Virus record (IMG/VR): IMGVR_UViG_3300035698_011431
Location: 1-64,000 of that record
Length of the DNA: 64,000 nucleotides
From: a virus
Lineage: Duplodnaviria > Heunggongvirae > Uroviricota > Caudoviricetes
Strand: one strand, 5' to 3'
In this document: positions 24,865 through 59,675 of the stretch, piece after piece
Numbering within the stretch: the first letter of the stretch is position 1
How the letters are laid out: each line of letters begins with the position of its first letter
Translations under genes and position numbers: made by a program
The notes under the pieces: model-generated
Told to the model about the DNA's origin: nothing
Seen by the model: only the letters and a program-made list of their open reading frames with translations
Databases searched by the model: none

Positions 24865-24912
24865 TCCACACACAAGGGACGGACTTGAAACGCCCGCCCC
24901 TTTAAACTAATA

Positions 24913-25091
24913 TAAGTTTAGTAGAGAGAAGACTGGTAGTGACCAGTAATGAGTCATGTCACCTCTGTATCCATATATACAAGCTCCTCAACGCATATGG
25001 TATGTAAAGTTGGTGAGTAGTTAGGCGGCAGCAAACCTACTATAAAAAAAGTGACCTGCAAGTTAAAGCCTTGCTCTCTCTACTAAGTTTA
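24913..25091 (+). ncRNA. tRNA-like structured element F (5' arm TAAGTTTAGTAGAGAG / 3' arm CTCTCTACTAAGTTTA, D-arm-like CTGG-TAGTGA-CCAG, T-arm-like GCAAG-TTAAAGC-CTTGC, ~110-nt insert)
   Basis: inverted terminal arms and internal hairpins read directly. Confidence 0.4.
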
Positions 25092-25160
25092 TGATAACTA
25101 CCCCTTGACGTCATGTACGGGTAGGGGATAGTTCTAATATAATAGAATTATAATAAAAAT

Positions 25161-25703
25161 ATGGGGAAATATAAAGAAGAATGGCTCAATGATGTTGATG
25201 CAAAAGAATTATTAAGAGGAGATAAAGTTAATATTGTTTTAGCTGAAGCGAAAGATTCTCTAAAAACTTTGATTGAGAATAGTGTACATATAGATAGAAA
25301 GGCAAATACAGCTTTAAATATAACGATAGCATTGCTTACAATATTATTTGGTTATTATATCGTAGAATGGCAAAAGGATAACTTTGATCTCATAATACCC
25401 TTAACCGTTTTTGGTATTTTTTTATTCATAGCAGCAATAATATTCTTTTTATCTTTAGTACCTAGAAAAGAATTCACAACCGGATATTCTCCAAAGATAT
25501 TATTATGGAAAGGGTCAAAAGAGATATATAAGGGGAAGGATGGGAAAAAACTAGTTGCTAATATATTTATGAAGTACCAGGAAAGAATAGAGAAAGTAAG
25601 GGATGGCAATAAAAAAAGGGCAGTTAGTTTGTTTATCGGTGAATTAATATTTATATTAGCTCCATTGTCATTTGTTATAACTTATTTGATAGTGAGGGAA
25701 TAA
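25161..25703 (+). CDS. membrane protein (two TM segments), function unknown
   Basis: 180 aa; hydrophobic stretches ALNITIALLTILFGYYIV and LIIPLTVFGIFLFIAAIIFFL. Confidence 0.4.
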   Translation: MGKYKEEWLNDVDAKELLRGDKVNIVLAEAKDSLKTLIENSVHIDRKANTALNITIALLTILFGYYIVEWQKDNFDLIIPLTVFGIFLFIAAIIFFLSLVPRKEFTTGYSPKILLWKGSKEIYKGKDGKKLVANIFMKYQERIEKVRDGNKKRAVSLFIGELIFILAPLSFVITYLIVRE

Positions 25704-25957
25704 TTTATTTTTCTTTAATATTATCTTTTTCAGCAGCTTTAATTTCTTCGGCTTCTTGCAACATATTTTCTTCAAATAAATTTTCTTCTTCTAGCTCATC
25801 TTCTTTATTTCTTTCTTCGTCTGTCATTTGGGTGTGAAATTAATTTTAATTTGACAATTTTTGTCAAAGACTTATTCTTTAAATAAGTAGTAAATTGATA
25901 AACAAAAACACTTGATAAACTTCTAATATTATGTAAATCTCATCAGTACCTTCAAAA

Positions 25958-26053
25958 ACACTAGAATGTGGAGATGAGGGGTCTTGAACCCCTTGCCGAC
26001 AAGTCTTGGAAACCCGAGCACCACCATGGCATCCCCACATCCTAGTGTTTTTT
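25958..26053. ncRNA. long GC-rich hairpin H1 (18-bp closing stem with G-U-compatible mismatches) with T-runs on both sides; interior carries a T-arm-like AGGGG-TTCAAGA-CCCCT on the minus strand
   Basis: CACTAGAATGTGG...CCACATCCTAGTG then TTTTTTT. Confidence 0.4.
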
Positions 26054-26065
26054 TATACAAAAAAA

Positions 26066-26166
26066 TCTACTGTACAGGCTAGCGCTTTGGGAATATCCAT
26101 TTACGTGAACACCCCCCAAGTATTTGGCTATCTGGGAGATAATCTCTCAAAGCGCCGACCTTTACA
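26066..26166. ncRNA. long hairpin H2 (~25-bp stem ATCTACTGTACAGGCTAGCGCTTTG / CAAAGCGCCGACCTTTACAGTAGAT) flanked by A/T runs
   Basis: read directly. Confidence 0.4.
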
Positions 26167-26291
26167 GTAGATCAAATTTTTAACAATTTTCTCTATACTT
26201 GTGTTTAATTATAGACTTGTAAGTTATTTTTATTATACTAAAATATAGGAAAGAAGGATAGAATCATTTAAGAAATATAAAAGATACAAAA

Positions 26292-26783
26292 ATGGCAAAT
26301 TTCCAAAAAGCAAAAAATGAAGCAGAGAGGGTTATTGATCAGAATTATGTTAGTGATCTGCCGGTCAGAGTAGAAGATTTTGTAGTTAATTATGGTTATA
26401 TAGTCAAAAAAGCAGATTTACCTTCAAATATCGCCGGCTTTGTTAATATTGACGAAAAAGCTATATATGTAAATGATCATGATTCCCCTCAAAGGAAGGC
26501 TTTTACAATTGCACACGAATTGGGTCATATTGTTCTTCATAAGAAAGATTTGGAGTCTCAACCGGAGATTGGTGTTATGTATAGACGTCCACTTGGGCAA
26601 AAAGACCCAGATGAAAAAGAACAAGAGGCAAATTGCTTTGCTGCAAATTTATTAGTTCCTGAAAAACTTTTGAAAGAAGCAATAGCAGAATATAGTCTTG
26701 GCGATGACAATGCTGCATTAGCCAGGTTCTTCGCTGTTTCTAAAGAAGTTATTGGATATAGGCGAAAAGATTTGAATATATGA
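26292..26783 (+). CDS. ImmA/IrrE-family zinc metallopeptidase
   Basis: HELGHIVLH (HExxH) in a ~160-aa protein with the ImmA layout. Confidence 0.6.
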   Translation: MANFQKAKNEAERVIDQNYVSDLPVRVEDFVVNYGYIVKKADLPSNIAGFVNIDEKAIYVNDHDSPQRKAFTIAHELGHIVLHKKDLESQPEIGVMYRRPLGQKDPDEKEQEANCFAANLLVPEKLLKEAIAEYSLGDDNAALARFFAVSKEVIGYRRKDLNI

Positions 26784-26873
26784 AAAATAAGGATGTACAA
26801 ATAAATAAAGGAGATCCAACAAATATTTATCTAGACCTTATCTCTAAATGCCAACTAACATTAATATACAACA

Positions 26874-27224
26874 ATGAACAAAGACACTAAAAAAGAAATC
26901 AAAGAAGAGGTTAAAAAACAACTAGAGAAAGTTCTAGGGGATAATGAAGTTCTAATAATTGAAAAGGCTTCTAATGGCTATAAGATTAAGTGTATGGACT
27001 GGGAAAGAGATGAACCTAAAATGGTAGAAACATTGTTTAAGATAGAACATAATTATGATTCATACGATAGATCTAAAGAATATGATAAAAAAGAGAAAGA
27101 AGGAATTAGTGAGATGGTTAGTGAGATACTTTTTTGGATGGGGTATGACTGGGATAAATGGAGGAAAGATAACCCCGAATTAAAATGGGATAATGTAGGA
27201 GATCATTATGAAGGCAATGGATAA
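26874..27224 (+). CDS. hypothetical protein (W-rich C-terminus)
   Basis: 116-aa ORF. Confidence 0.35.
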   Translation: MNKDTKKEIKEEVKKQLEKVLGDNEVLIIEKASNGYKIKCMDWERDEPKMVETLFKIEHNYDSYDRSKEYDKKEKEGISEMVSEILFWMGYDWDKWRKDNPELKWDNVGDHYEGNG

Positions 27225-27241
27225 ATGGTGGGTTAATGTAG

Positions 27242-27313
27242 CCATCTTAACTCAATCGGCTAGAGGGCAGACTGTAAATCTGTTATTGCTTGGTTCGATT
27301 CCAAGAGGATGGA
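27242..27313 (+). tRNA. tRNA, anticodon GTA (Tyr) with an unusually short variable loop
   Basis: Hand-folded cloverleaf. Acceptor stem CCATCTT/AGGATGG with one G-U pair. D-arm CTCA...AGAG pairs 3 of 4. Anticodon stem GCAGA/TCTGT, loop CTGTAAA. T-arm CTTGG-TTCGATT-CCAAG. No encoded CCA. Confidence 0.5.
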
Positions 27314-27882
27314 CATTATATATAGAAGAAATTAAAATCCCTATATATAAAATCTCTAATGAGGTAAAGGGGATACAGAGTTATCCACACTCAAATTAAA
27401 TCGATACATACATGAATTTAGACGAACAACTAGAAGAATATAGAAGGCTAGTAGACAAACTAGCAGAAGAAGAACCTGAAGAGGTTGAACATATAATGGA
27501 TATTTTTAATGGTATAAATCCTTTTAAGGATAAGAAAACCCGAAAACAATGATCTAGCAGCATCTATCAACTCGTGAGCTATTAGATAGGTCGCTTGGGA
27601 CTATTAGATCAATTGCTTTTGGGGAATAGGGTGTTATAATAGAAATAGCTCAACTCAAGGACTTGACTTTCACGTCAAATAGTGTATAATAAAGAAGCTA
27701 GTAGGTGTTCGATTAAATTCGAATTAAATGCCGAACCTACAATAGGATTGAAATTTGAATAGAACGGGGGTACAGTTAGAAAGCTATAAATGGATGAGCT
27801 TGATGCTAGGTTTACGTACCCTCGTACCGAGTTCAAGCAAGTCCGTTTATAGCTTTTTATATGCCTAAATTATAATAAACAA

Positions 27883-28227
27883 ATGAAATTAACATCAAAA
27901 ATACGTTTAGATTATCATATAACTACTGAATCTTATAGTGTACACGATCCTGTAGAATCAAGAAGACATGATAGTGAGCGAATAGATTTATATATGGTCA
28001 GCTATAATTTCCATGGGGGAACTAATCTTCTAGAGGACATAGATATAAAGATCGCTATTAAAAAATTAATAGACTGGTTCTTTGATAATGGGATAGAAGA
28101 TTATACTATGGATAGTATGACGAAAACAACAGATCCTGGATTAAAACCTTTATTGGAGATACGAGGAGAATTTCAATGTCATGAATTACCGAAAGGGTTA
28201 GAACTCAATAGTTCTTTTAACAATTGA
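27883..28227 (+). CDS. hypothetical protein
   Basis: 114-aa ORF. Confidence 0.35.
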   Translation: MKLTSKIRLDYHITTESYSVHDPVESRRHDSERIDLYMVSYNFHGGTNLLEDIDIKIAIKKLIDWFFDNGIEDYTMDSMTKTTDPGLKPLLEIRGEFQCHELPKGLELNSSFNN

Positions 28228-28356
28228 GTGAGAGAGTGGCGGAATAGTAGACGCAAGTATTAGCGTGCTGTAGAGGGCGAAGATTATTTCATGTCCCTTA
28301 AAATCAAATCCATGGTTAATTATCTACATGCAAGGTCTTGTCCTTGCCTCTCTCCC
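28226..28356 (+). ncRNA. tRNA-like structured element A (GAGAGAG-TG-GCGGAATAGTAGACGC ... GCAAGGTCTTGTCCTTGC-CTCTCTC)
   Basis: acceptor-like 7-bp terminal pairing, D-arm-like and T-arm-like hairpins, ~75-nt insert at anticodon position. Confidence 0.45.
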
Positions 28357-28451
28357 TTAGTTTTTAAAACTAAACTCAAATTACTTGTCTTTCTTGAGTA
28401 TAAATAAATACAAAGGCACAGCTTTAACTAATTAGAATTAATATTAAATAA

Positions 28452-28937
<486 letters not shown>

Positions 28938-28953
28938 AATTAATATTAAATAG

Positions 28954-29190
28954 ATGGAATATAAGGTTGGCGATAATGTAAAAGTAATAAATACAAAGGT
29001 TCCCTATAGAGAGAATGGAAGTGAGGCTAAAATACTAGAAATTAATGATAAAGGGGATGGTATATCTGAAGATAATAATCGTAGATATGAAATCAAATTA
29101 ATATTTATTGATGACAACGTTATTGCGTTTTATTACCCAGGAGATTTAGAAGCTAACCCTTTACAAGAAACAATAAATAGAGTATATTAA
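28954..29190 (+). CDS. hypothetical protein
   Basis: 78-aa ORF. Confidence 0.3.
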   Translation: MEYKVGDNVKVINTKVPYRENGSEAKILEINDKGDGISEDNNRRYEIKLIFIDDNVIAFYYPGDLEANPLQETINRVY

Positions 29191-29373
29191 ATGTACAAAT
29201 ACCAGCTACAATGACAAAATAGAAGGCCAACGGTGGTCTTACTAGGATAAATAGATTTTCTATTTTGTCCGTAGCTGGACCTAGTAACTACCGTTGGCTT
29301 TTTTAGTATTCAAATTACTTACTCTTCTTGAATTAAAATAAATACAAGAGTATCGCTTTAACGCCACTGATTT

Positions 29374-29523
29374 ATCAATTGAATAGAGTAGAAGTGTATA
29401 GGACACGCCCGCTGGACCTGCGGGATGTGGCAAAACCTTGAAGCAATAGTTGGTCACGCGACAGGGATTTAAAGTTAGACATAACCACCGCAAGTAACTC
29501 CTTGCCTACTCTATTCAATTGAT
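29374..29523 (+). ncRNA. structured element C: 150-nt hairpin closed by a perfect 18-bp inverted repeat ATCAATTGAATAGAGTAG / CTACTCTATTCAATTGAT, with GCAAG-TAACTC-CTTGC before the 3' arm
   Basis: read directly. Confidence 0.45.
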
Positions 29524-29556
29524 AAACAAACGCTAAAGTTCTTTTATAAATTAAGT

Positions 29557-29666
29557 GAGAGAGCGATAAGTTAGTTCTTATATGAAAACAAGTCCCAGGT
29601 GGAAACTCTTCAGAGACAAATTCCTGGTGGAAACCCTTACAAGGTGCAAATCCTTGCCTCTCTCCC
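29557..29666 (+). ncRNA. tRNA-like structured element D (GAGAGAG ... CAAGG-TGCAAAT-CCTTG-CCTCTCTC; internal direct repeat CCAGGTGGAAAC)
   Basis: same 3' module and CCCTTAGTTTTTAAAAC tail as element A. Confidence 0.4.
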
Positions 29667-29883
29667 TTAGTTTTTAAAACATTTGCATTAAATACTAATT
29701 AAGGTTATAATATACTTAATTGAATAGAACTCCGATGCCAAACGGAGAATAAACTGATACACGAATGAGAACGTTGTTTTTAACGACGATCCTAATCCTT
29801 ACATATTTGGCAAAAGTGTGTATCGATTTGGATTAGGAGCCGTTAAAAGTAACGTTTTTTTTATATTCTAATAAATAAAAATA

Positions 29884-30732
29884 ATGACAGGGGTCATGTC
29901 TGAAGGTTATGGAATCTTACCTAAAAAGATTCTAAAAGATAAAGAATTATCGAGTACAGCAAAACTTTTATATGTTCTTATAAGTTCATTAACTGCTAAA
30001 ACAGGATATTGTTATGCAAATAATAAATACTTGGGAAAAGAAATGGGCATTAGTGAAGTACAAGTATCGAACACCATTAAAAGGCTAGGCAAATACCTAG
30101 TAATTGAAGATCCAAAGTCTCATAAAAGGATAATCAACCTTAAAGAAAACTTTAAGGAACCACAAAGAAAACTTAAAGGTTCCTTAAAGAAAACTTTAAG
30201 GAACCACAAAGAAAACTTTAAACATAATAGTATAAGTAATAATAGTATAAAAGAAGAAGAAGGAAATTCTCCTTCTTTGGAAGAACCCACATACGTAACA
30301 GATAGAACGAGCATAAAGGAAAGTATTGGTGTATTAAAGGCGCAATTAGGGGAGAAAGCTATACAAACGGCTGATAACTATAAGCCAGACCATGATCCAC
30401 CTAACAAGCACAAGAAAAGGAGAAGCCGTTCCGAGTTACAATTATGTTATGACTATTTGTTAAGGGAAGGAGCGAGATTATTTAAGATAGAGGGGTGGAA
30501 TCCAGGACCGCAACGAAAAGCTATTCGGGCGATAATAGACAGATATCCTGATAAGTCAATTGAATATTTTAAAAAAGAAATAATAGACAGGGCAAACAAA
30601 ATGATTGAAGCTGGTTGGGTAGATGTATATGATTTTTCTAATCTAAATATACACTGGCACAAATTTGGAGAACAAAAGGTTGTTGGCAATACAACTGAAT
30701 TAAAGACAGCAGAGGAACTTCTAAAAAATTAA
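29884..30732 (+). CDS. replication initiator / replisome organiser (N-terminal HTH), containing a 36-bp x2 DNA direct repeat (ori candidate)
   Basis: The N-terminus LPKKILKDKELSSTAKLLYVLISSLT...GYCYANNKYLGKEMGISEVQVSNTIKRL is typical of phage initiators. The gene lies directly upstream of DnaB. Perfect direct repeats occur at 30139-30174 and 30183-30218. Confidence 0.5.
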   Translation: MTGVMSEGYGILPKKILKDKELSSTAKLLYVLISSLTAKTGYCYANNKYLGKEMGISEVQVSNTIKRLGKYLVIEDPKSHKRIINLKENFKEPQRKLKGSLKKTLRNHKENFKHNSISNNSIKEEEGNSPSLEEPTYVTDRTSIKESIGVLKAQLGEKAIQTADNYKPDHDPPNKHKKRRSRSELQLCYDYLLREGARLFKIEGWNPGPQRKAIRAIIDRYPDKSIEYFKKEIIDRANKMIEAGWVDVYDFSNLNIHWHKFGEQKVVGNTTELKTAEELLKN

Positions 30733-30748
30733 AATATAATTTAATTTA

Positions 30749-32053
30749 ATGATCAAACAGATAAACGAAATTCCAAAATGTATTGAGACGGAAAAAGCGT
30801 TGTTGGGATGTCTAATGAATAATCCCCAAGAAGTTATAACACAAGTAAATGATCAAATAACTTTTGATGATTTCTGGGATATTACATACAAGAATATATA
30901 TAAGTCTGCTGAGTTTATTTATAAAAGAGATGGGAGTGTAGACATAGCGGTATTAAGAGAGAATACAAATATCAAGGCAACCGTATTGGCAAGCATATTA
31001 AATTATCCTTTTTCTTTAACTGAGATTCAAGATTATATCAAGAGGATAAAGAACGCTTCTAACCTTAGAAAGTTAATAAATGCAGGGGCAAAGATACAAG
31101 AATTGGGGAAATCGGAAGGGGACATAGATAATATCTTACAAGAAGGGACAAAGTTATTGTCAGATATTGACTACAAAGAGAATGACAGGCAGAAGAACAT
31201 GAATGAGATGTTAACGAATGCAATGCAAAGATATGAGGACAGGGTAAAGAATAAGGGAATGATTGGGATACCAAGTGGCTTTATAGATCTAGATAAATTG
31301 ATACACGGATTTAAGGAAAGCACTATGACGGTAGTAGCAGCAAGACCAAGTGTAGGGAAAACATCTTTTGTCTTAGACATGATTAGAAATATGATTAAAA
31401 AAGGATATTCGGCAATAATATTTAGTTTAGAGCAAAGTTATGAGGAGCTTATCGATAAACTTATATGTGCGGAAGGGGATATAGATCTTTGGAGAATGAG
31501 GGGTGGGAAAATAAATGAAGAAGTTGAAGGACAATATTCGGAAGCCCTTGGGATACTAGGGGATTGTAAATTAATTATAGATGACAGTAGTGCTATAACT
31601 CCAAATCATATTCGAACTACCTTGAAACAACAAATGGAGAGGCAGAAAATAGATATAATAGTAATTGATTATTTAGGATTGATGATGGCTGGATATAAGA
31701 CAAATAATATAACAGAAGAGATAACAAGGATTTCTCAGCAACTAAAATCAATATCAAAAGAGTTTAGGATTCCAGTGATTGTTATTTCTCAATTGAGTAG
31801 GAATATAGAACAACGGGGAGACAAGATGCCTAGATTATCAGATCTTAGAGATTCGGGATCGATCGAACAGGATGCTGATATAGTAATGTTTATTACAAGG
31901 GAATTTCAAAAACCAGAGGGTCAAGATTTATTTGATGTTGATATACAGATCCTCAAACATCGTGCAGGACCGATAGGGTTAGCACAATTATTATTTGATC
32001 CAAGCACTACAAGCTTCAAGAATAAAGTAAAACATGATGGTCCTTCATTTTAG
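30749..32053 (+). CDS. dnaB: replicative DNA helicase, DnaB family
   Basis: 434 aa; Walker A ARPSVGKTSFVLDM, the motifs IIDYLGLM and SQLSR, and a DnaB N-terminal domain. Confidence 0.8.
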   Translation: MIKQINEIPKCIETEKALLGCLMNNPQEVITQVNDQITFDDFWDITYKNIYKSAEFIYKRDGSVDIAVLRENTNIKATVLASILNYPFSLTEIQDYIKRIKNASNLRKLINAGAKIQELGKSEGDIDNILQEGTKLLSDIDYKENDRQKNMNEMLTNAMQRYEDRVKNKGMIGIPSGFIDLDKLIHGFKESTMTVVAARPSVGKTSFVLDMIRNMIKKGYSAIIFSLEQSYEELIDKLICAEGDIDLWRMRGGKINEEVEGQYSEALGILGDCKLIIDDSSAITPNHIRTTLKQQMERQKIDIIVIDYLGLMMAGYKTNNITEEITRISQQLKSISKEFRIPVIVISQLSRNIEQRGDKMPRLSDLRDSGSIEQDADIVMFITREFQKPEGQDLFDVDIQILKHRAGPIGLAQLLFDPSTTSFKNKVKHDGPSF

Positions 32054-32401
32054 GAATTAATTAAACAGGTAAGGAAACATGACTAAAGGAGAATATATTG
32101 AATGGACAAAAGAACTAGCAGGGTTTTGTAGATGGTTTCAAAAGAAATATAACACAGAATCTTTTCATTTAGGGAAATTTGAGAGAGGGGAATATTTTAT
32201 AGTTAGTCCTGTATTGGATAAATTAGTAGCAAATAGAGGGAAGAGATGGCCAGGGGATAATATAATAAAGATAAAAGAATTCAAAAAACAAGCACCTGTT
32301 TTAATATAAAATAAATCAATTTTTTTCCAAAGTTTTTCAAACGGTAAAATGAACGACCTAAGACACCGCATGGATAGTAGAGATACAGCCCTTTAAAATA
32401 T

Positions 32402-32430
32402 TTGACATTGTTTTCTCTTTGGTATATACT
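32402..32430 (+). promoter_or_regulatory. sigma70-like promoter TTGACA-17-TATACT with conserved leader TCATAATCAATTAA...CAAATG
   Basis: near-identical promoter+leader also at 54430-54488; same promoter core at 33224-33252. Confidence 0.5.
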
Positions 32431-32460
32431 TAATTCATAATCAATTAAATAAAAAAACAA

Positions 32461-32922
32461 ATGACTAGAGGTACGGGTTATATAATACAAGGGGATAAAA
32501 AAGGAAAGATTAAAATGTGGCAAACATGCGAATTTAATGGAGATATGTATAGGGAAAAAGAACATGGACATGGGGATAAATTCCTAAAAATGTTATCTAA
32601 AGTGGACGGTAAAGATAGTTTATTACAAATGGCTAAAGATTTTGACAAAGAAGAAGGGTTTGATTATCAAGAAAATTATAAAAATCATTTTAAAATATCA
32701 GAACTTAAGATTAAAGAATTAGAAGAACTTGAAATAGACTTTAACATAGATTATTTCGAAAGATTCTTTTCAGACTGGGTTTTTATAAAAAACACGACGT
32801 CTCTGAATTTCAAATTAATTACTGAAGACAATAAAAAGATCTTTTTACATAAAGAAGAAAGCATAGCTTTAAATTTTGGGAATATTGAGGGTCATTATAA
32901 AATAAAAGCTTCAAACCTATGA
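32461..32922 (+). CDS. hypothetical protein
   Basis: 153-aa ORF downstream of promoter. Confidence 0.4.
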   Translation: MTRGTGYIIQGDKKGKIKMWQTCEFNGDMYREKEHGHGDKFLKMLSKVDGKDSLLQMAKDFDKEEGFDYQENYKNHFKISELKIKELEELEIDFNIDYFERFFSDWVFIKNTTSLNFKLITEDNKKIFLHKEESIALNFGNIEGHYKIKASNL

Positions 32923-33227
32923 TAACTAAAGAACAGATATCACAACAGATTCAAGCATTAGATGAGAAATATTGTGGGGATGGAATACCAGCCTTAGAGA
33001 TATATCAAGCATTTGAATGGGAAAGGAACAGACAGATGGTACAAGTTAAGAAATTACAGGATAATTTGTGGAGGGATAAAATGGAAAAGTTGGAACTAGA
33101 GCATCGAATTCAATTATTAGTAGAAGAGATTGATGAGTTGAAAAATGGGGTGGATACCGAACCGAAAACAACGGAAGAACTAATGGACGATGAGTCATCT
33201 CAATCAATATCGAATAAGAATGTTTGA
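32919..33227 (+). CDS. hypothetical coiled-coil protein
   Basis: 102-aa ORF. Confidence 0.35.
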   Translation: MITKEQISQQIQALDEKYCGDGIPALEIYQAFEWERNRQMVQVKKLQDNLWRDKMEKLELEHRIQLLVEEIDELKNGVDTEPKTTEELMDDESSQSISNKNV

Positions 33228-33252
33228 CATTATTACCCCTTTGGTATATACT
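33224..33252 (+). promoter_or_regulatory. sigma70-like promoter TTGACA-17-TATACT (second copy of the CTTTGGTATATACT core)
   Basis: read directly. Confidence 0.45.
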
Positions 33253-33682
33253 GTATATAGATAAGGTTAATCTAGATCACCTAGCGAGCTTCCGCAGTTC
33301 GAGGATAAAACAAAAGATTAATCGGGTAACAACTCTATAATTAAAATAAACAAACATGGTTACATTTCAAGAGTTAATGGCAAAGATGGTAGAGAGGGGA
33401 AAACTTTCTAAAGAAGGAGCAGATTGGATGACAATAGAATTAAGAAAAGCAGAAGCAATAGAGAGATTAAAAATCTTGAAAAAGAAAAGAGTTCATTTAG
33501 AACAATGGGAGCAAAAAGCGGAATGGGATGGAAATGTATTAGTATTGGATAGGTTGACGTAGGTGAGGTGTTAATCAAAAAGAGGTATGAAATATCAACT
33601 TCGGCATTAAAGCCTCGCTAACATTATCGTACGAGCTAGAAACGTATAATAAGTATAACTTATAATTAAGAAAATGAAACAA

Positions 33683-33859
33683 TGAACTTTAGATTTAATA
33701 AAAAGGATAAAGAGAAATTGGTAGGAGTGAGATTGAATTTGAAGGATTGGAACGAGCTAAATGAGATTGCAAAAAACGAAAAGGCTACTTTAGCTGAGAT
33801 AATAAGAGTATTTATTGAAGAAGCAAAAGAGGAATATAATAATTTAGATAAATAACATA
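33683..33859 (+). CDS. small ribbon-helix-helix (CopG/Arc-like) DNA-binding protein, 58 aa
   Basis: MNFRFNKKDKEKLVGVRLNLKDWNELNEIAKNEKATLAEIIR: beta-strand then two helices; below ORF-track cutoff. Confidence 0.35.
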
Positions 33860-35021
33860 ATGAATAATCAAGATTAAAAACTTAGCTTGCAGGAGACAAA
33901 TATTAAATTAACAAAAATTGTTTAGTTGTTGTTGTTATTATTAGAATGTTTGTTCTATCCTAGACCCTTAGACCTCCTGCAAGTTAATTCTTTAATTAAT
34001 AAACAAATGACAGACAAACTACTAAGAGGATATTTCAAAGCAAACATGATAATAATACCTCCATTATGTTTAGTGGGATTTATTATATCAGTTCAGGGAG
34101 ATATGATATGGGAAGGGATAGTATTATTATTGATAGCGGTAGGGCATTTCTTCATTTCAAAATCATTATATAATAATATAGATAAGATATGAACATCATA
34201 AAAAGGCTAGAAAGAACAATCAATTCAGAGGTAATATTCTGTTGGAATAAAAAGATCAACTTAGAGACAGCAAAGAAAATAACCAAAATACAAAAAAAGA
34301 TAAAAGAGATATTACCAGAGGGATGGAATTATGAATATCATACAAACAAAACTAATTATACAGAGCATATAATTGAGAAGAAAGACGGGAGTTTAATTGA
34401 TATATTACATAACACAGAAAAAACATGAACATAAAAAGAGAGGACGCATATCCTAACATAACAGACTTAGCACGCGCACAATTAAGCAAATCAGATAAAC
34501 AGCCTATAAGAATGGATATAAACAAGCAATTAAAGATTTTAAAAGGAAGTTCCTTGAAGATAAAAGGGATGATCTGTATTTAACTACAAAAAAAATGTTA
34601 GAAAATAAAACAATGAAAAAGAGAATAGAATTTCTAGTAAATTATAAGCCTCCTATATCTAAACTGGGAAAGGAAATGGTTGGCGTACTTAGTCGCATGG
34701 ATCTAGGGATAAGTGGTGTAGAGTTACCACCAACAACAGAGAACTGGAGCTGGTCAACTACCGAGAAGGTGGATAATGAATATATTAAGAAGATGAAAGG
34801 AGTAATTCAAGAAGCTATCAATAGCCAAGGTGGTGAATTAATAAAAGTAAACTATTTACAATGACACTCCATCAAAAGTTAGTTAACAGAGCCTACGCAA
34901 ACAAAAGGCTCACCAAAAGAGAATATAGTAATCTATTAAAAGTAATAGATAAAGGAGACCTAGGGAGTGAGCAAGAATTTAAGATGATAGTTAACAAAAT
35001 TAATAGATAATAACATTGATA

Positions 35022-35199
35022 ATTAGAGTTTTATGGAGTAGTGGCGGAATAGTAGACGCATATATGAAGCGGATTCCAGTATAGTTACACTGTGGCGCAA
35101 CGGTAGCGCTTAGGGGTTTTCCCCTGCGGTTGTAGGTTCGAGTCCTACCAGTATGTAACATGCAAGGTCTTGTCCTTGCCTACTCCATTAAGCTCTAAT
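35022..35199 (+). ncRNA. tRNA-like structured element B: long terminal stem ATTAGAG..GGAGTAG / CTACTCC..CTCTAAT, A-type D-arm and T-arm modules, and a nested second cloverleaf-like insert (D-arm GCGC-AACGGTA-GCGC, T-arm GTAGG-TTCGAGT-CCTAC)
   Basis: read directly; anticodon-equivalent region of inner unit is a 4-nt-loop hairpin AGGGG-TTTT-CCCCT. Confidence 0.45.
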
Positions 35200-35251
35200 C
35201 ATCACAAAAACAAAAAAAACATGAATTATAATATAAAATTAATAAATAGAC

Positions 35252-35539
35252 ATGAAAGAATTAAGATTAGAGTTAAAAGTTGGGGAAGTTTTTACAAAAG
35301 AAAAGTCTGATAAGCTCATGGAATATATTAGAATACTTATTGATGGAGAGCGAAACTTATGGAAGCCTATAAGTAAAAAGAAGAGTTTATTGTTTAAGGA
35401 TAGATTGCTTAATTTTATGTTGAATAATGACACAAATGAAATGTCGTTAAGGGAGATTAGTAGGGCAGTTGGTGCAAAATATCCACAGAAGACGAAACAC
35501 CACCTTAATCGGCTTCATAAAGCAGGGTTAATAAAATAG
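35252..35539 (+). CDS. hypothetical protein, possible winged-helix DNA binding
   Basis: 95 aa, basic C-terminus KTKHHLNRLHKAGLIK. Confidence 0.3.
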   Translation: MKELRLELKVGEVFTKEKSDKLMEYIRILIDGERNLWKPISKKKSLLFKDRLLNFMLNNDTNEMSLREISRAVGAKYPQKTKHHLNRLHKAGLIK

Positions 35540-35569
35540 TAATAAAATTAATAATTAATAAATAATAAG

Positions 35570-36229
35570 ATGGATAAATATAAATTAACAGAAAACAAAA
35601 GAGAAGTATTTGGAATAACATTATTCCAAATAGAAGCATGTATTTCGTTTGGTAGTATTAACAAGGGAGAAAGAGGTGGATGGATAGAGAAGGAAGAAAA
35701 CTTGTCACAGGAGGGAGACGCAAGGGTTTCTGAAAACGCATGGGTTTATGGAGACGCAAGGGTTTATGGAAACGCAAGGGTTTATGGAAACGCAAGGGTT
35801 TCTGAAAACGCAAGGGTTTATGGAGACGCACAGGTTTATGGAAACGCAAGGGTTTCTGAAAACGCAAGGGTTTATGGAGACGCACAGGTTTATGGAGACG
35901 CAAGGGTTTATGGAGACGCAAGGGTTTATGGATACGCATGGGTTTCTGAAAACGCACAGGTTTATGGATACGCAAGGGTTTATGGAAACGCAAGGGTTTA
36001 TGGAAACGCAAGGATTTCTGGAAAGATAAAATTATTGGCAGGATTTTTCTTCGAGATGAGAAATAACAAAGAAGATATTAATTATAAAGAGGTAGATGAA
36101 GAAACGGAATTGATATATAAAGGGGATGCTAAGTTTGGTGAAGAAGAAGATGGTGAGGTTGAGATAAAAGTAGAAGGAAAAACAGTGAAGATAAGTCGTA
36201 AAAGTGCAAAAGCACTAAACTTGATTTAA
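35570..36229 (+). CDS. hexapeptide-repeat protein: ~16 tandem copies of (G-[DN]-A-[RQW]-V-[YS]), beta-helix candidate
   Basis: 18-bp DNA tandem repeat GGARACGCAMRGGTTTMT from ~35712 to 36012 inside the ORF. Confidence 0.5.
   Translation: MDKYKLTENKREVFGITLFQIEACISFGSINKGERGGWIEKEENLSQEGDARVSENAWVYGDARVYGNARVYGNARVSENARVYGDAQVYGNARVSENARVYGDAQVYGDARVYGDARVYGYAWVSENAQVYGYARVYGNARVYGNARISGKIKLLAGFFFEMRNNKEDINYKEVDEETELIYKGDAKFGEEEDGEVEIKVEGKTVKISRKSAKALNLI
35712..36012 (+). repeat. 18-bp tandem repeat x ~16.5
   Basis: read directly; generates spurious antisense and off-frame ORFs (35658..36011 -, 35748..36029 +). Confidence 0.85.
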
Positions 36230-36266
36230 CAAAATTAATAAATAATAAACAAAAATAACATTGATA

Positions 36267-36365
36267 ATTAGAGTTTTATGGAGTAGACCTGCGCAGGCCA
36301 TGGTAAAGCTATACTACGAGCGTAGCGAGCAAGTTCGAACCTTGCATGCTCCATTAAGCTCTAAT
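36267..36365 (+). ncRNA. tRNA-like structured element E (same 5' flank as B: ATTAGAGTTTTATGGAGTAG; canonical T-arm GCAAG-TTCGAAC-CTTGC; 3' ATGCTCCATTAAGCTCTAAT)
   Basis: read directly. Confidence 0.4.
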
Positions 36366-40860: not shown

Positions 40861-42137
40861 ATAGGCACAGCAATATTTATTTTGGAATAATTAATAATAA
40901 TAAAAAACATGGAGAAAATAAAAGGATGGAGAAACCAATATGATAAAGACTTTGATGACGTTGGGCGTGTAATAGTATTTGAAAAGTTTATTCAAGGGAT
41001 AGGATTTGGATTTACACCAGCACATGCAAAAGAACATATTAAAGAAAAAGAAGAGAGATATAATAAGGAAATAGCAGCAATGAAAGAAGCGTTTGAATTA
41101 TGGAAACAAGAATTTAAAAGCTAACAAATAATAGATAGATGAAAATAGTAAAAAGTAAGCATCGAGGGTTAGTTCATCAAAGAGCAAGTTGTCTTGAGTG
41201 TGATTGGATGAATGAAGAATATATTGATTGTGAGGCCAGAAAGGAGGCAAAGAAACACGTATTGAGGACAGGGCATAGGGTACAACTGGAAAGTGGTATT
41301 ATGCGACAATATTATTTAATAAATAGCTAACAAATAAATAAAATGGATATAGAGAAAATAAAAGAAAATATAGAACTTGTTATTAAAAAGTTAAAGTATA
41401 TGAATGAGAAAGATGCGGTGCTTCAAGAAAAGATAATATTTATGGGCATAGATGATTTAATAGGAATCCTAACCTTTCGACAAAAAGAGAAGCTAAAAGA
41501 GATATCAGAAAAGATAGATTCTATGATTACGGATCAAGGCACTGAATTCAGTCTAGGTTACGATCAGGCCATAGTAGAAATTCGAGCTTTAAAACTATTA
41601 AATAAATAAAACATGAACAAAAAAGAAGAGATTAAGGCGGCAATTAGAATCCAGTTCAAACAAGCAGTAAATGAGGCATGGGCTAATGGAGCAGACAGAG
41701 TTATTGTTTTACCATCAGCTGAAAAAAGAGAGAAGAATATTTGTGATTTAATAGATGAATTAATAAATGAAACAGATACTCCCAAAAAAAAGAATTAAGA
41801 AAGAATCACTATTGATAAAGATAATAATGTGGATAATAATAGTTCCATTATCTATAATAATAGCGGTTCCAATCACAGTAGTAGTTACTATTTATTTAAT
41901 TAGATTTGCATTTACATGAGGAGGACAATAAATTGGATAATAGTAAGATATAAGATATTGAAATTGCGCATAACCATTAGAAGATTAAAGAGGAAAGGAA
42001 TTTTAAAATAAATATGAGGGGGTAGCTATTCCCTTACCAAGGGCATAGCTAGGAACAAATCTTACAAAGGTTTGTGGAGGTTCAAATCCTTCACCCTTTC
42101 GTCAAACAGCACATTACAAAAGGAGGTGAGATTTCTT

Positions 42138-46404: not shown

Positions 46405-47448
46405 ATGAATTTAGATAAAATAAATAATTTAATAGAGGAGAAGTATGTCTCAGTGCAGAAACACCCTATTGAAGATTTATATATCTATAACTATACACAC
46501 AAGGCTCAATTCGAGGGGAAATGGGATAAGGAAATAAGGATATGTAGGGGATTAATTTTAGATGGGAATAGTGATATTATAGCTAGACCCATGGAAAAAT
46601 TTTTTAATTATGAAGAGGTCGAAGTTAGGGATATTGAAATACCTAAAACAGATTTTAAGGTTTATGAAAAGTTAGACGGCTCGTTAATAATTTTATTTTA
46701 TTATAAACATAAATGGCGAGTAGCTACGAGGGGAAGCTTTACTTCAGATCAGGCAATAAAAGCCCGGGAATTATTAATAAATTATCAGCAATATATAAAC
46801 AAATTTAATAGAAATTATACATATTCACTAGAAGTTATTTATAAATCGAATCGTATTGTATGTGATTATGGAGAAGATGAAAGGCTAGTATTATTAGCAG
46901 GAATAAATATAGAGACAGGCAAAGAAATAGATATAATGAATATAGATTATCCTGATAAGCCAGAAATATTGTCAGGAGTTAAAGATTACAAAGAGATTAA
47001 GGCAAAAGAAGAAAAGAATAAAGAAGGATTTGTAATTAGATATGAAAATGGATTCAGATTGAAGGTTAAGTTTGAAAATTACAAGCGTTTGCATTCTATG
47101 TTGACAGGGATGACAGCACGTAAGATATGGCAAGCTTTAAAAGATAAAGAAGAGGTAAGTAAATATTTGGAAAAAGTACCAGATGAGTTTTATAAGTTTT
47201 TTAAAGACAAAGTAAAAGAAATTGGGAATAATTATAAGGAGATAGAGAGTAAATCAATTGAATATTATAAAGAGAATAGGGGACTAGATCGAAAAGAATT
47301 AGCAATTAAAGTAAACAAAGAAAAGGATAAACGAATAATACCGATTGTATTTAGTCTTTTAGACAAAAAGGATTATTCGGAAACAATATGGAAGATGATA
47401 AAACCAAAACATGAAATGCCACTTAATCAAATAGAAGACAATGAGTAA
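46405..47448 (+). CDS. RNA ligase 1 (T4 RnlA/gp63-like)
   Basis: CRGLILDG...ARPMEKFFNYEE parallels T4 Rnl1 ECRGIMFE...SRPMEKFFNLNE; motif I KLDGSL. Confidence 0.7.
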   Translation: MNLDKINNLIEEKYVSVQKHPIEDLYIYNYTHKAQFEGKWDKEIRICRGLILDGNSDIIARPMEKFFNYEEVEVRDIEIPKTDFKVYEKLDGSLIILFYYKHKWRVATRGSFTSDQAIKARELLINYQQYINKFNRNYTYSLEVIYKSNRIVCDYGEDERLVLLAGINIETGKEIDIMNIDYPDKPEILSGVKDYKEIKAKEEKNKEGFVIRYENGFRLKVKFENYKRLHSMLTGMTARKIWQALKDKEEVSKYLEKVPDEFYKFFKDKVKEIGNNYKEIESKSIEYYKENRGLDRKELAIKVNKEKDKRIIPIVFSLLDKKDYSETIWKMIKPKHEMPLNQIEDNE

Positions 47449-48292
47449 AATTTACATGACCTGTGGCTTACCTGCAAGTGGGAAAAGTACATGGGCGAAA
47501 CAATATATAAAGGAGAATCCTAACACTAAAATCGTAAATAAAGATTCTTTTAGGGCAATGTTAGATAATGGAAAATGGTCAAAGGGAAATGAAAAGTTTG
47601 TTTTAGAAGTTAGGGATTTAATAATAATCGCAGCATTAAAACAAGGTAAAGATATTATAGTAGACGATACTAATTTTAATATTGTTCACTTGAAAAGAAT
47701 AGAAGAAATAGCAGAAAAGCATAATGCAGAGGTGGAAATAAAAGATAGTTTTTTGGATATTCCATTGGATGAATGTATTGAGAGAGATAAGAAAAGAGAA
47801 GGCAGTGTTGGGGAAAAAGTTATTCGAGGGATGTATGACAAATATTTAAAGGAAAAGGATTATGTAAGACAAGACAAAGAATTATCAAAGGCTGTTGTCT
47901 TTGACGTCGATGGGACTTTAACTACAGGTCCTAAAGACAGAAGTCCCTATGAATGGAGTAAGGTTGGACAAGACGAACTATGTCAAGAAGTATATAATGC
48001 GTATAAGCTATACAAAGAAGCTGGATATAAAATAATAATCTTTACAGGACGTGATGGGTGTTGTGAAAAGGAGACAAAGGAATGGTTAAAAAAATATAAT
48101 ATAGAGTATGATTATTTTGATATTAGACCATTGGGAAACGCCGAAAACGATGCTATAATAAAGGAAAGGATGGTAAAGGAAATCTTAGATAAATATTACA
48201 TAGAAGTGGTTTTCGATGACAGAAATCGTGTTTGTAAAAAATGGCGTCAGCTAGGATTCAAATGTTATCAAGTGGCGTGTGGGGATTTTTAA
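47441..48292 (+). CDS. polynucleotide 5'-kinase / 3'-phosphatase (T4 PseT-like)
   Basis: P-loop GLPASGKST at N-terminus; HAD phosphatase motif VVFDVDGTLT in C-terminal half. Confidence 0.85.
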   Translation: MSKIYMTCGLPASGKSTWAKQYIKENPNTKIVNKDSFRAMLDNGKWSKGNEKFVLEVRDLIIIAALKQGKDIIVDDTNFNIVHLKRIEEIAEKHNAEVEIKDSFLDIPLDECIERDKKREGSVGEKVIRGMYDKYLKEKDYVRQDKELSKAVVFDVDGTLTTGPKDRSPYEWSKVGQDELCQEVYNAYKLYKEAGYKIIIFTGRDGCCEKETKEWLKKYNIEYDYFDIRPLGNAENDAIIKERMVKEILDKYYIEVVFDDRNRVCKKWRQLGFKCYQVACGDF

Positions 48293-48302
48293 GAATATTT
48301 AA

Positions 48303-57140: not shown

Positions 57141-57265
57141 CACAAAAACACAATAGATTATAATAAGGATAAATAATAATCAATTAAGAGGTTGTAATAT
57201 ATCGGTTACTTCTTTTGATGAAACCACCGCTATTAATTCTCACCTCATAATTGATTGTTATCAGT

Positions 57266-57393
57266 AAAAGGGTTGCAATATAACAGTTACTTCAAATTTT
57301 TTGTCGTTGGTTCAATTCCAACCTTTGACTTCGGTCAAGGTAGCTCAGTGGTAGAGCAAAAATCAAGACTCTGTTATAAATTTTTACCCTTTT
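57266..57393 (+). ncRNA. circularly permuted tRNA-like RNA (YrlA-type Y RNA candidate)
   Basis: Module order: T-arm GTTGG-TTCAATT-CCAAC, acceptor-like hairpin CTTTGAC-TTCG-GTCAAGG, then TA, then D-arm GCTC-AGTGGTA-GAGC. The flanks pair: AAAAT/ATTTT, CTGTT/AACAG and AAAAGGG/CCCTTTT. It lies 50 nt upstream of the TROVE protein gene. Confidence 0.5.
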
Positions 57394-59625: not shown

Positions 59626-59675
59626 TTTGACTCACAGCCTCGTCGACCCGAGGTTGTTGTTAATTTAAAACAAGA

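Follow-up and report, generated by a model that had tools for sequence, protein, structure and literature searches.

The six dispersed structured repeats of this phage represent, in diverged form, a widespread family of phage RNAs that is apparently unannotated; elements A, B and D are members of the family, and C, E and F its degenerate paralogs. Family members retain a class II tRNA-Leu body with an acceptor of 7 bp, U8/A14, a D arm of the Leu type, an A15:U48-type pair and, stacked on the acceptor, a T arm. Judging from sequence, the elements are probably genes for non-decoding, tRNA-derived RNAs that are processed by tRNA enzymes.

A preliminary description of the window, that is, the whole 64,000-nt stretch analysed here, had reported six intergenic elements with paired 5' and 3' arms. 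All six were found at the positions reported, all on the + strand, intergenic and in the same orientation as the genes:

Element F, 24911..25093 (+): acceptor AGAGAGA 24923-24929 / TCTCTCT 25075-25081, with 12 bp of additional leader-trailer pairing; D-position hairpin ACTGGT/ACCAGT 24932-24947; T-position hairpin GCAAG-TTAAAGC-CTTGC 25058-25074.
Element A, 28215..28369 (+): acceptor GAGAGAG 28230-28236 / CTCTCTC 28348-28354; tRNA-Leu-type D arm 28237-28255; insert of 75 nt; T arm GCAAGG-TCTTGT-CCTTGC 28330-28347; extended arms 28215-28229 and 28355-28369.
Element C, 29371..29526 (+): acceptor AGAGTAG 29385-29391 / CTACTCT 29506-29512, with a 14-bp extension; T-position hairpin GCAAG-TAACTC-CTTGC 29490-29505; no Leu-type D arm.
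Element D, 29542..29679 (+): acceptor GAGAGAG 29557-29563 / CTCTCTC 29658-29664; family-type T arm (A)CAAGG-TGCAAAT-CCTTG(C) 29639-29657; extended arms and 3' tail in common with A.
Element B, 35022..35199 (+): acceptor GGAGTAG 35035-35041 / CTACTCC 35180-35186; tRNA-Leu-type D arm 35042-35060; insert of 102 nt; T arm 35162-35179; extended arms in common with E.
Element E, 36267..36365 (+): acceptor GGAGTAG 36280-36286 / ATGCTCC 36346-36352, 6/7 paired including one G-U; canonical T arm GCAAG-TTCGAAC-CTTGC 36329-36345; flanks in common with B, interior unrelated.

MFE folds closed all six elements with their own arms, as had been described, and the z-scores against dinucleotide shuffles were -5.42 (C), -3.85 (B), -3.80 (E), -2.94 (F), -2.76 (A) and -2.38 (D), the folds of A and D including the full arms. 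The terminal helices were longer than first described, 19-22 bp in total, with 12-15 extra pairs beyond the 7-bp acceptor in F, A, C, D and B. The extended arms fall into four types of unrelated sequence, yet every type pairs; when the arms were read directly, their wobble pairs were all on the + strand and there were no A.C pairs. The T-position hairpin GCAAG-N5-9-CTTGC occurred five times in the 64-kb window, in F, A, C, B and E, each time abutting the 3' arm on its 5' side, where shuffles expect 0.05; element D carries the variant ACAAGG-TGCAAAT-CCTTGC. A D-position hairpin had been claimed for A, B, E and F, and was clear in A, B and F but weak in E, where a palindrome of only 3 bp takes no part in the MFE fold. 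The modules of 19 and 23 nt common to A and B proved real, as did the shared flanks of B and E (87-90% over 41-46 nt) and the shared tail of A and D (30 nt, 100%). The compensatory change of the terminal stem was also present in the window, but at only about three of the seven stem positions; it is the homologues elsewhere, not the window copies, that supply the strong evidence of covariation.

The preliminary description had proposed a covariance model and a wider search. The model that we built for the family, R1, on which true tRNAs score only 17-21 bits, found B (50.4 bits, E 6e-12), A (48.5 bits, E 2e-11) and D (27.7 bits, E 1.8e-5), together with homologues in other phages. R1 gave no detection of C, E and F, which we therefore class as degenerate paralogs. 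Full R1 matches of 60-71 bits were found in SPP1, a phi3T/SPbeta hybrid and Listeria phage vB_LmoS_188, and, among the Herelleviridae, in Bacillus phages BSP38 and SPG24 and Enterococcus phage phiSHEF16. The matched stretches in these confirmed cultured phages carry no annotation, no family in Rfam 15 matched, and neither ARAGORN nor Rfam RF00005 called the family elements. The exact T module was present in more than 119 IMG/VR contigs and the exact D module of A and B in 28. When the D and T modules were combined in one query, 130 records of cultured phages matched, many of which match the D module alone and are annotated tRNA-Leu genes; such genes were those of cyanophages, Stenotrophomonas phages and Erwinia phages, in line with an origin of the family from tRNA-Leu.

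Selection on RNA structure, first argued from the window copies, is supported by family-wide covariation of the acceptor. We picked 91 loci by the sequence of their D and T modules only, independently of the acceptor, and the seven acceptor positions were complementary at 7/7 in 82 loci and at 6/7 in eight (90/91 with at least 6/7), against a chance expectation of about 1.3%. There were 46 distinct acceptor pairs among the 91 loci, all seven pairs change on both sides, and the observed covariation was reached in 0/500 shuffles. Acceptor sequences are hypervariable across the family, and the family-wide helix stops at 7 bp, pairing beyond it being at chance level. T8, A14 and A15 are invariant, the T preceding the T stem is nearly so, and the discriminator is A in 68% of members and another nucleotide in 32%. 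The near-invariant D- and T-arm sequences, including an unusual G at T-loop position 2, exceed in conservation what a processing handle would need, which hints at a specific partner.

The family architecture comprises the 7-bp acceptor, a tRNA-Leu-type D arm (UGGCGGAAUAG(G)UAGACGC), a variable insert of 8-280 nt, and a T arm with a 6-bp stem and the loop UGCAAAU. The earlier view of tRNA-like elements with variable inserts replacing the anticodon region is upheld, and the D arm of A and B is genuinely of the tRNA-Leu type. As in class II tRNA-Leu, there are a 7-bp acceptor, U8, an A15:U48-type pair, an A discriminator in most members, and a hairpin in the position of the long variable arm, ending 1-2 nt ahead of the T stem. 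The sequence of the D arm, UGGCGGAAU(U/A)GGUAGACGC, hardly differs from the D arm in annotated tRNA-Leu genes of phages. Unlike tRNA-Leu, the family has a linker of 8-24 nt without an anticodon stem-loop, its variable-arm hairpin is greatly expanded and lineage-specific, and most members have a 6-bp T stem and the loop UGCAAAU, with G at the universal U55 position.

The insert, which replaces the anticodon arm by a short linker and the expanded hairpin, ranges from 8 to about 280 nt across the family, the minimal member (L177) having only 8 nt between its D and T arms. Nearly the same insert occurs in SPP1 and in BSP38, an unrelated myovirus, with different but compensated acceptors. Occasionally an insert contains a nested tRNA: a complete tRNA-Thr in the family member L260, and in B a tRNA-shaped unit:

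35086..35156 (+): tRNA-shaped unit nested in the insert of B, predicted from the fold, with canonical D arm and T arm.

ARAGORN reported the latter as tRNA-??? and Rfam tRNA gave 40.3 bits; it is not a decoder, because the loop of its "anticodon" hairpin is only 4-6 nt. The length range, the nested tRNAs and the insert shared by SPP1 and BSP38 suggest that the insert is tolerated cargo.

In BSP38 and phiSHEF16 the element lies within a tRNA array on the tRNA strand, and likewise in IMG/VR tRNA clusters, whereas in temperate Firmicute siphophages it lies between the late activator and HNH/TerS; outside this phage it is a single-copy gene, either in tRNA arrays or at a fixed position before the packaging genes. 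We propose that the + strand elements are transcribed with early genes, fold into a tRNA-like L shape, and would be released by the host tRNA-maturation machinery, with RNase P acting 5' of the acceptor, followed by 3' trimming and possibly CCA addition. Such release fits with the position of the family inside tRNA arrays of large lytic phages. The tRNA body would then provide processing, stability and recognition, and the insert would be a lineage-specific displayed domain. In this phage, leader-trailer pairing, which is absent from the rest of the family, lengthens the acceptor helix to 19-22 bp, a size that would suit RNase III, so that these copies probably also punctuate and process polycistronic early transcripts; the long helices thus suggest intercistronic processing of the RNase III type. 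The mosaic of A/B modules and of B/E and A/D flanks probably arose when paralogs recombined at the conserved D and T modules, which accounts for it best.

The window copies themselves depart from the family consensus at tRNA-elbow nucleotides: A and B are without G18G19 and have T loops of 6 nt. These departures, together with the missing Leu-type D arm of C, E and F, mean that the window copies may no longer fold or act like tRNAs. The leader-trailer helix also pairs N-1 with the discriminator, which is unfavourable for RNase P.

The alternative that survives best, possible but clearly less probable than our proposal, is that the elements are purely cis-acting intercistronic signals, such as RNase III/RNase P sites, 3'-end stabilisers or terminators, in early mRNAs, their tRNA likeness being vestigial and no trans-acting RNA product mattering. 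This is consistent with the intergenic, gene-oriented placement of all copies, with the 19-22 bp terminal helices specific to this phage, with the loss of tRNA-core features in C, E and F, with the T run that closes the A/D tail, and with the strong structure of many neighbouring intergenic regions. The position between late activator and packaging genes (HNH/TerS) in temperate Firmicute phages would also suit a purely cis-acting role. However, a cleavage site needs neither a family-wide tRNA tertiary core nor exact D/T conservation, and members occur inside the tRNA arrays of lytic phages, where mRNA punctuation is not needed. A T-rich tract follows the element in only 8/98 members, and scanning for the terminator consensus gave none on the + strand at the elements.

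It is rather unlikely that the RNA acts through its tRNA-Leu body as a mimic, either charged by LeuRS or bound by another enzyme or a defence nuclease that would recognise the tRNA elbow or acceptor; its role would be that of a decoy, a sponge or a non-ribosomal aminoacyl donor. LeuRS does not read the anticodon; its identity elements are A73 and the tertiary core, and anticodon-less minimal tRNA-Leu substrates can be charged. The D arm identical to that of real tRNA-Leu genes, the conserved U8, A14, A15 and U before the T stem, the predominant A discriminator, and an acceptor of exactly 7 bp with free flanks all point in this direction. Against it, the discriminator is non-A in nearly a third of members (C in A and D of the window), G replaces the universal U55 in the T loop, the acceptor and T stems stack to 13 bp instead of 12, and the acceptors are hypervariable. 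In the window copies, moreover, G18G19 is missing and the ends are buried in long helices, and CCA is encoded in only 1/98 members.

The preliminary description had also raised a possible link of the six elements to the Ro60 homologue of this phage. That A-F are Y-RNA-like partners of Ro60, binding it through the long 5'/3' helix as in Yrn1, we consider improbable. The phage does encode Ro60, and the long terminal helices are peculiar to it; bacterial Y RNAs (YrlA, Yrn1) are likewise non-decoding tRNA mimics with D-like and T-like arms and a helix of the 5' and 3' ends, and are also found in phages. Yrn1 of D. radiodurans has the same order as the elements, with a terminal stem, a D-like region with D-loop features and then a T arm (PMC4201824). 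The window, however, contains a better candidate:

57280..57380 (+): YrlA-like Y RNA, Rfam RF02553 42.8 bits, E 1.8e-7, below the RF02553 gathering score of 69; fold z -3.46.
57442-58845: Ro60 (TROVE+vWA) gene with a Pfam TROVE match, about 60 nt downstream of the YrlA-like RNA.

The YrlA-like RNA is the probable Ro60 partner and is distinct from the six elements, which lie 21-32 kb away. In YrlA the order is circularly permuted, from T arm through acceptor hairpin to D arm, opposite to the D-then-T order of the elements, and a Ro60-binding helix is present, next to a Ro60 gene; the elements have none of these features. A-F lack the GNCGAA Ro-binding motif and any other shared helix sequence, and gave no Rfam match to Y RNA or YrlA at E<=10. 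The annotated neighbourhoods of the cultured-phage family members examined contained no Ro60-related terms.

Very improbable, and already largely refuted, is the reading as miniature mobile elements (MITEs) or as inverted repeats that act at the DNA level, for instance in recombination or packaging. Several dispersed copies with terminal inverted repeats and a mosaic of flanks and interiors would fit, but the terminal arms differ between copy types and always pair, contrary to TIRs that a transposase recognises. Target-site duplications are absent, the similarity of B and E runs about 25 nt past the arms, G-T pairs occur on the + strand only, and the homologues are single-copy at conserved positions with covarying acceptors. 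Least credible of all is the reading as interrupted tRNA genes, split or with introns, from which decoding tRNAs would mature, possibly via the phage RNA ligases. The acceptor, D and T parts do resemble tRNA, Rnl1, Pnkp and an Rnl2-like ligase are encoded by the phage, and if RNase P and RNase Z cut out the tRNA-shaped unit of B, the ends left behind would be ligatable. But the sequence flanking the inserts cannot assemble an anticodon stem-loop, no anticodon arm remains, L177 has just 8 nt between its D and T arms, ARAGORN with introns allowed found nothing, and the Rfam search showed no group I or group II features.

Returning to the proposed non-decoding tRNA-derived RNAs, several known systems resemble them in part. 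The engineered "tRNA scaffold" keeps the acceptor, D and T arms and replaces the anticodon arm by an arbitrary structured RNA, and cellular tRNA enzymes process and stabilise the chimera. The family appears to share this design, except that it is natural, conserved and diversified and the scaffold is man-made; if our proposal is true, the elements would be its natural counterpart. Species 1 and species 2 of T4 (rnaC, rnaD) are likewise small stable RNAs from a phage tRNA cluster, presumably matured together with the tRNAs, and rnaC has a canonical T arm adjoining its 3' end. They differ in having no recognisable sequence similarity to the family, no Leu-type D arm and a weak acceptor, and represent one locus with two RNAs rather than a widely distributed family with a conserved core. 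In tmRNA, too, both RNA ends form a tRNA-like acceptor/T-arm domain that encloses a large non-tRNA internal domain; it has no D stem, and its tag ORF, pseudoknots and alanine identity (G3:U70) are all absent from the elements. GOLLD and ROOL RNAs are phage- or prophage-borne, often beside tRNA genes, and GOLLD variable regions can embed tRNAs, as do B and L260; they are 5-8 times larger than the elements, are without a tRNA-like closing domain, and had no match to the elements in Rfam.

Two further tRNA-like elements were present in the window:

Element H, 42016..42101 (+): 7-bp acceptor; 6-bp T stem TGGAGG/CCTTCA with loop TTCAAAT; fold z -4.59.
25966..26036 (-): small tRNA-shaped RNA, predicted from the fold; 7-bp acceptor with a 4-bp extension; T arm AGGGG-TTCAAGA-CCCCT.

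Element H, which is not among the six, has two long hairpins without an anticodon loop, and its R1 score (18.8 bits, E 0.006) is at the level reached by true tRNAs. The small RNA on the - strand, and none of the six, gave sub-threshold Rfam matches to the tRNA-like domain of tmRNA; it also matched mascRNA below threshold.

The six tRNA-like intergenic elements of the preliminary description were all found where it had placed them. They occupy the following positions:

24911-25093, plus strand: element F
28215-28369, plus strand: element A
29371-29526, plus strand: element C
29542-29679, plus strand: element D
35022-35199, plus strand: element B
36267-36365, plus strand: element E

The claimed pairing of each 5' arm with its own 3' arm held, as minimum free energy folds closed every one of the six elements by its own two ends. 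In F, A, C, D, and B all seven acceptor positions pair (7/7); in E six do (6/7). Past the acceptor, F, A, C, D, and B have 12-15 extra pairs, and E has extended arms in common with B. Because further pairs follow the 7-bp acceptor-like stem, the terminal helices reach 19-22 bp, longer than had been described. With the full arms included, fold z-scores across the six elements were -2.4 to -5.4 versus dinucleotide shuffles. The wobbles in the arms are G-T on the plus strand and there are no A.C pairs, which points to an RNA transcribed in the gene sense. The hairpin in T-arm position was also borne out: GCAAG-N5-9-CTTGC occurs five times in 64 kb versus 0.05 expected, each time immediately 5' of a 3' arm, and element D carries a one-mismatch variant. 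The modules common to A and B, the flanks common to B and E, and the tail common to A and D are all real, and they make the window copies a mosaic.

An anticodon arm (5-bp stem, 7-nt loop) was found in none of the six elements, where an insert of 50-110 nt takes its position. The six elements were unmatched by the tRNA covariance model (Rfam RF00005) and by ARAGORN, even at E<=10. In the window, ARAGORN and Rfam called as tRNA only a unit nested in B, whose 'anticodon' loop has just 4-6 nt, and the following gene:

27242-27314, plus strand: tRNA-Tyr(GUA), the only normal tRNA (class I, 73 nt, short variable arm, first pair C1:G72)

The T loops of the elements are TTCGAAC in E, TGCAAAT in D, TTAAAGC in F, and 6 nt long in A, B, and C. 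In A and B the D loop reads AAUAGUAGA, which has one G versus the canonical G18G19.

The 19-nt module that A and B have in common proved to be a class II tRNA-Leu D arm. This D module occurs as an exact string at 28 IMG/VR loci, each with 7 nt upstream and, 45-200 nt downstream, a T arm together with a stretch complementary to the upstream 7 nt; such loci often fill tRNA-cluster gaps left empty by ARAGORN. More than 119 IMG/VR contigs contain the T module (T stem and loop) in the form seen in element D (CAAGGTGCAAATCCTTGC), and upstream of it nearly all have a Leu-type D arm. About 100 distinct members were parsed, with 67 different acceptor strands. Among 91 loci picked by D-module and T-module sequence only, with pairing not presupposed, acceptor complementarity was 7/7 in 82 and 6/7 in 8, against about 1.3% expected. 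In a 41-sequence alignment of mixed trimmed and full members, which replaced a full-length MAFFT alignment with misaligned T arms, all seven acceptor pairs vary on both sides and 97.7% of cells pair. None of the shuffled and slid controls came near the observed acceptor covariation. Little or no variation occurs at U8, A14, A15, and the U directly 5' of the T stem, indicating that the tRNA tertiary core is preserved. The family is a conserved RNA structure, a tRNA-Leu body that has a variable insert and no anticodon arm; in large lytic phages its members stand among tRNA genes, and across the family the 7-bp acceptor ends are free.

The T stem usually has 6 bp with the loop UGCAAAU, and in a minority 5 bp with the loop UUCAAAU. 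In three IMG/VR loci (L005, L007, and L020) the T loop itself holds an extra insertion, TG | ACTATACGAGTA ... CTCGT | CAAAT, with its own stem ACGAG/CTCGT. The span from D arm to T arm ranges from 8 nt (in locus L177) to about 280 nt. Typically, a linker of 8-24 nt precedes a long hairpin that closes 2 nt 5' of the T stem, the position of an expanded variable arm. In two members a tRNA is nested in the insert, namely a complete tRNA-Thr (L260) and the defective tRNA-like unit of element B. No conserved motif was found in the linker of family members. A pseudoknot joining the 5' linker to the inside of the insert, suggested by the Listeria-type and Bacillus-type inserts, was rejected for lack of family-wide support; the longest complementary run between linker and insert averaged 4.4 versus 4.1 expected, with p<=0.05 in 3 of 60 members.

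Membership of the window copies was assessed with R1, a covariance model built on the conserved core and tolerant of the insert. R1 scored 50.4 bits for B, 48.5 for A, and 27.7 for D, with ordinary tRNAs at 17-21 bits, and gave no match to C, E, or F at E<=10. The D module, UGGCGGAAUAG(G)UAGACGC right after the 7-nt acceptor strand, is exact in A and B and absent from C, D, E, and F. Element D has both the family T stem GCAAGG/CCUUGC, with an outer A.C pair, and the loop UGCAAAU, and its 3' acceptor strand adjoins; A and B have the family T stem but the loop UCUUGU. Elements C, E, and F retain GCAAG/CUUGC, and they have arms in common with R1-detectable members (E with B; C near B; F near A and D), for which reason we read them as degenerate paralogs on sequence grounds. 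The window copies, with their 12-15-bp extension, depart from a pattern of exactly 7 bp with unpaired flanks. In the family, extension past 7 bp is at chance level, and 48 of 98 members have none at all. Since the helix ends at 7 bp across the family, the long leader-trailer helices are a local variant peculiar to this phage.

A combined query with the D and T modules returned 130 cultured-phage records, many of which match one module only; they include phages of Bacillus, Listeria, Enterococcus, Lactobacillus, Leuconostoc, and Brochothrix. Where the D module matched by itself, the matched stretch is an annotated tRNA-Leu gene, in cyanophages and in phages of Stenotrophomonas and Erwinia, and this confirms that the family derives from tRNA-Leu. 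Full R1 matches were confirmed in six cultured phages:

SPP1, NC_004166 6647-6756 (L360 1048-1157): 70.9 bits
Enterococcus phage phiSHEF16, L359 2995-3124: 69.7 bits
Bacillus phage BSP38: 65.2 bits
Bacillus phage SPG24: 65.2 bits
phi3T/SPbeta hybrid, MT366946 (L361 2500-2635): 62.1 bits
Listeria phage vB_LmoS_188: 60.8 bits

In BSP38 and phiSHEF16, both gene-annotated Herelleviridae records, the element lies within the tRNA array and on the tRNA strand. In temperate Firmicute siphophages it lies between the sigma-region-4 late activator and the HNH/TerS genes, and in Listeria prophages it adjoins the Rfam motifs rliG, rli62, and mcrA but is a separate element. In SPP1, between genes 9 and 11, it is overlain by 'gene 10', a doubtful call on the minus strand. 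The inspected records all lack an annotation of the element, and no RNA is mentioned at its locus in the SPP1 re-annotation paper. SPP1 and the unrelated myovirus BSP38 have a nearly identical insert and T arm with different, compensated acceptors. Recombination with the conserved D and T modules as exchange points would account for this sharing and for the mosaic of the window. A scan of genome contigs with 17 nt of the D module gave 120 matches, nearly all in an Alphaproteobacteria coding gene; the only clear family member among them was L070. In the tRNA array of phiSHEF16 we also observed a tmRNA-like gene at L359 2900-2995 (3' part within the searched stretch, 40.7 bits), the end of which is the exact start of the tRNA-Leu-like family member.

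tRNA mimicry by phage and bacterial RNAs is already known. No family of Rfam 15 covers the elements at gathering thresholds or at E<=10, as searched with the window region, 12 family loci, and one strong member, and no described equivalent was found in the literature searched. A 2023 survey with 10,006 candidate structured RNAs lists unnamed 'tRNA-like' ones from IMG/VR (PMC10690425), which may include this family. In Rfam 15, the inspected annotations, and the literature searched, the family appears to be undescribed in its architecture and breadth as well as in the multi-copy form with extended helices. Megablast against cultured phages gave no relative of the window phage, and a lookup of identical proteins gave nothing but a 1.9-kb piece of the contig itself. 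When IMG/VR and metagenomes were scanned at the protein level, the relatives had at most 71% identity, and elements C, E, F, G, and H had no nucleotide homologues in them. Among these, H is an additional element:

42016-42101, plus strand: H, an anticodon-less tRNA-like element (7-bp acceptor, 6-bp T stem, loop TTCAAAT, two long hairpins)

H lies 38 nt upstream of a gene and has a fold z-score of -4.59; R1 gives it 18.8 bits, a score that ordinary tRNAs also reach. In 70 metagenome loci, R1 with default filters gave no match and a structural script picked up just a few elements of tRNA-like form. Nothing informative came from scans for sigma-70 promoters and terminators, and an over-permissive fuzzy-motif scan gave noise only.

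As for how the RNA most likely works, it would be transcribed along with its neighbors, fold into a tRNA-like L shape, and be excised by RNase P and 3'-processing enzymes, so that a stable chimera would persist and display the insert from the tRNA body. In the window phage, the 19-22-bp helices would make the copies substrates for RNase III-type cleavage, and the copies would then also divide early polycistronic transcripts; many neighboring intergenic regions are likewise strongly structured. One main rival limits the RNA to a cis-acting role in processing or stability. The other main rival is a mimic whose action would depend on tRNA-Leu identity, such as one charged by LeuRS or serving as a decoy. 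A specific partner is hinted at by the extremely strong conservation of the D and T modules and by the odd G of the T loop.

A more ambitious reading, which we regard as rather unlikely, is that the family is a previously unrecognized class of phage effector RNA. The anticodon-less tRNA-Leu chassis, unusual in its 7/6 acceptor-T stack and G55 T loop, would present interchangeable RNA domains, sometimes whole tRNAs, or engage a tRNA-binding host factor (e.g. LeuRS, RNase P, or an acceptor- or elbow-directed defense enzyme). The family, expanded to at least 6-8 copies in the window phage, would there cooperate with the RNA toolkit of the phage, whose candidate parts are as follows:

28452-28937: Rv2179c-like 3'-5' exoribonuclease, between elements A and C
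46405-47448, plus strand: Rnl1-type ligase of an RNA-repair cassette (46405-49430)
47441-48292, plus strand: Pnkp (polynucleotide kinase-phosphatase) of the same cassette
48303-49430, plus strand: Rnl2-like ligase with PHA02142 OB domain, same cassette
57280-57380, plus strand: YrlA-like Y RNA (RF02553, 42.8 bits, E 1.8e-7, below gathering score), about 60 nt upstream of the Ro60 gene
57442-58845, plus strand: Ro60 (TROVE and vWA, Pfam)

For example, a nested tRNA could be excised by RNase P/Z and the chassis resealed by a ligase.

A narrower proposal, that the six elements are Y-RNA-like partners of the phage Ro60, fared poorly, and nothing positive in our analysis supports such binding. Going by its literature description, D. 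radiodurans Yrn1 has a similar topology, which makes such binding conceivable. However, the GNCGAA (N0-1 G) helix motif is in no terminal arm, the Ro60 gene is 21-32 kb off, the D-then-T order is opposite to that of YrlA, and RF02553 did not match the elements at E<=10. The YrlA-like RNA at 57280-57380 itself runs T arm, acceptor hairpin, D arm, the order expected of it. A second long hairpin upstream of it (57173-57262, plus strand) has the motif GGTTG(T/C)AATATA.C.GTTACTTC in common with the YrlA 5' strand and, judged from this sequence, may be a YrlB-like second Y RNA.

ARAGORN found no tmRNA in the window, and the only Rfam match to tmRNA (RF00023) was a 25-bit partial one to the following feature:

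25966-26036, minus strand: 71-nt tRNA-shaped RNA (7-bp acceptor with 4-bp extension, canonical T arm)

Proper D and anticodon arms are absent from this RNA, and its sub-threshold matches are to the tmRNA tRNA-like domain and to mascRNA. On inspection, the T4 rnaC/rnaD region (T4 70908-71171) had nothing similar beyond a generic T arm, leaving an analogy only. A MITE or other transposon (the preliminary description had also suggested miniature mobile elements) was not supported, as the arms are of four unrelated sequences (A/D, B/E, C, and F) and flanking direct repeats are absent.

To our knowledge, there are few tRNA mimics, among them tmRNA, YrlA, and the T4 stable RNAs. Each of these has been instructive on RNA processing or quality control. 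The present family is apparently common in phages, being found in more than 119 metagenomic viral contigs and several cultured phages, among them the workhorse models SPP1, the phi3T/SPbeta hybrid, Listeria temperate phages, and Bacillus and Enterococcus Herelleviridae. Since genetically tractable phage-host pairs are among its carriers, its function is directly testable there; the finding is solid. If the tRNA body is a natural scaffold, it would be nature's counterpart to a widely used synthetic-biology device, and if a tRNA-binding host factor is targeted, a new takeover or counter-defense mechanism may be involved. Annotating the family would at the least put an end to false ORF calls like SPP1 'gene 10' and account for the 'empty' gaps of phage tRNA arrays.

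The window, an AT-rich genome of a tailed phage (33% GC), has nearly all genes on the plus strand. Pfam assigned capsid, tail, and terminase genes, a DnaB helicase, a cassette for 7-deazaguanine, and RNA enzymes that form an unusual set. Four early-region intergenic stretches (33856-34006, 33563-33681, 27553-27882, and 26060-26170) are strongly structured (z -3.2 to -5.9, mononucleotide shuffles) and have no tRNA-like features, which suggests that this phage makes general use of intercistronic RNA structures. C1:G72 is the archaeal/eukaryal type of TyrRS identity. It is odd in the tRNA-Tyr of a phage whose promoters are of the sigma-70 type, whose SD sites are strong, and which has an SLT lysin. 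The duplicate contig (L285/L286) has a single mismatch, apparently in the D loop of this tRNA. Three 22-nt iteron-like direct repeats at 30138-30221, inside an HTH_36 (replication-initiator-like) ORF (29884-30732), probably mark the replication origin. Between B and E, a tandem array with an 18-nt period (35646-36077; 17 overlapping register-shifted copies, with ends down to about 63% identity) encodes the YdcK beta-solenoid/hexapeptide repeats of ORF 35570-36229. The region 3' of the Ro60 gene (58845-60686) carries unusual phage cargo, a TerD-domain gene (59050-59625) and a gene for an Na/Ca-exchanger-family membrane protein (59676-60686).
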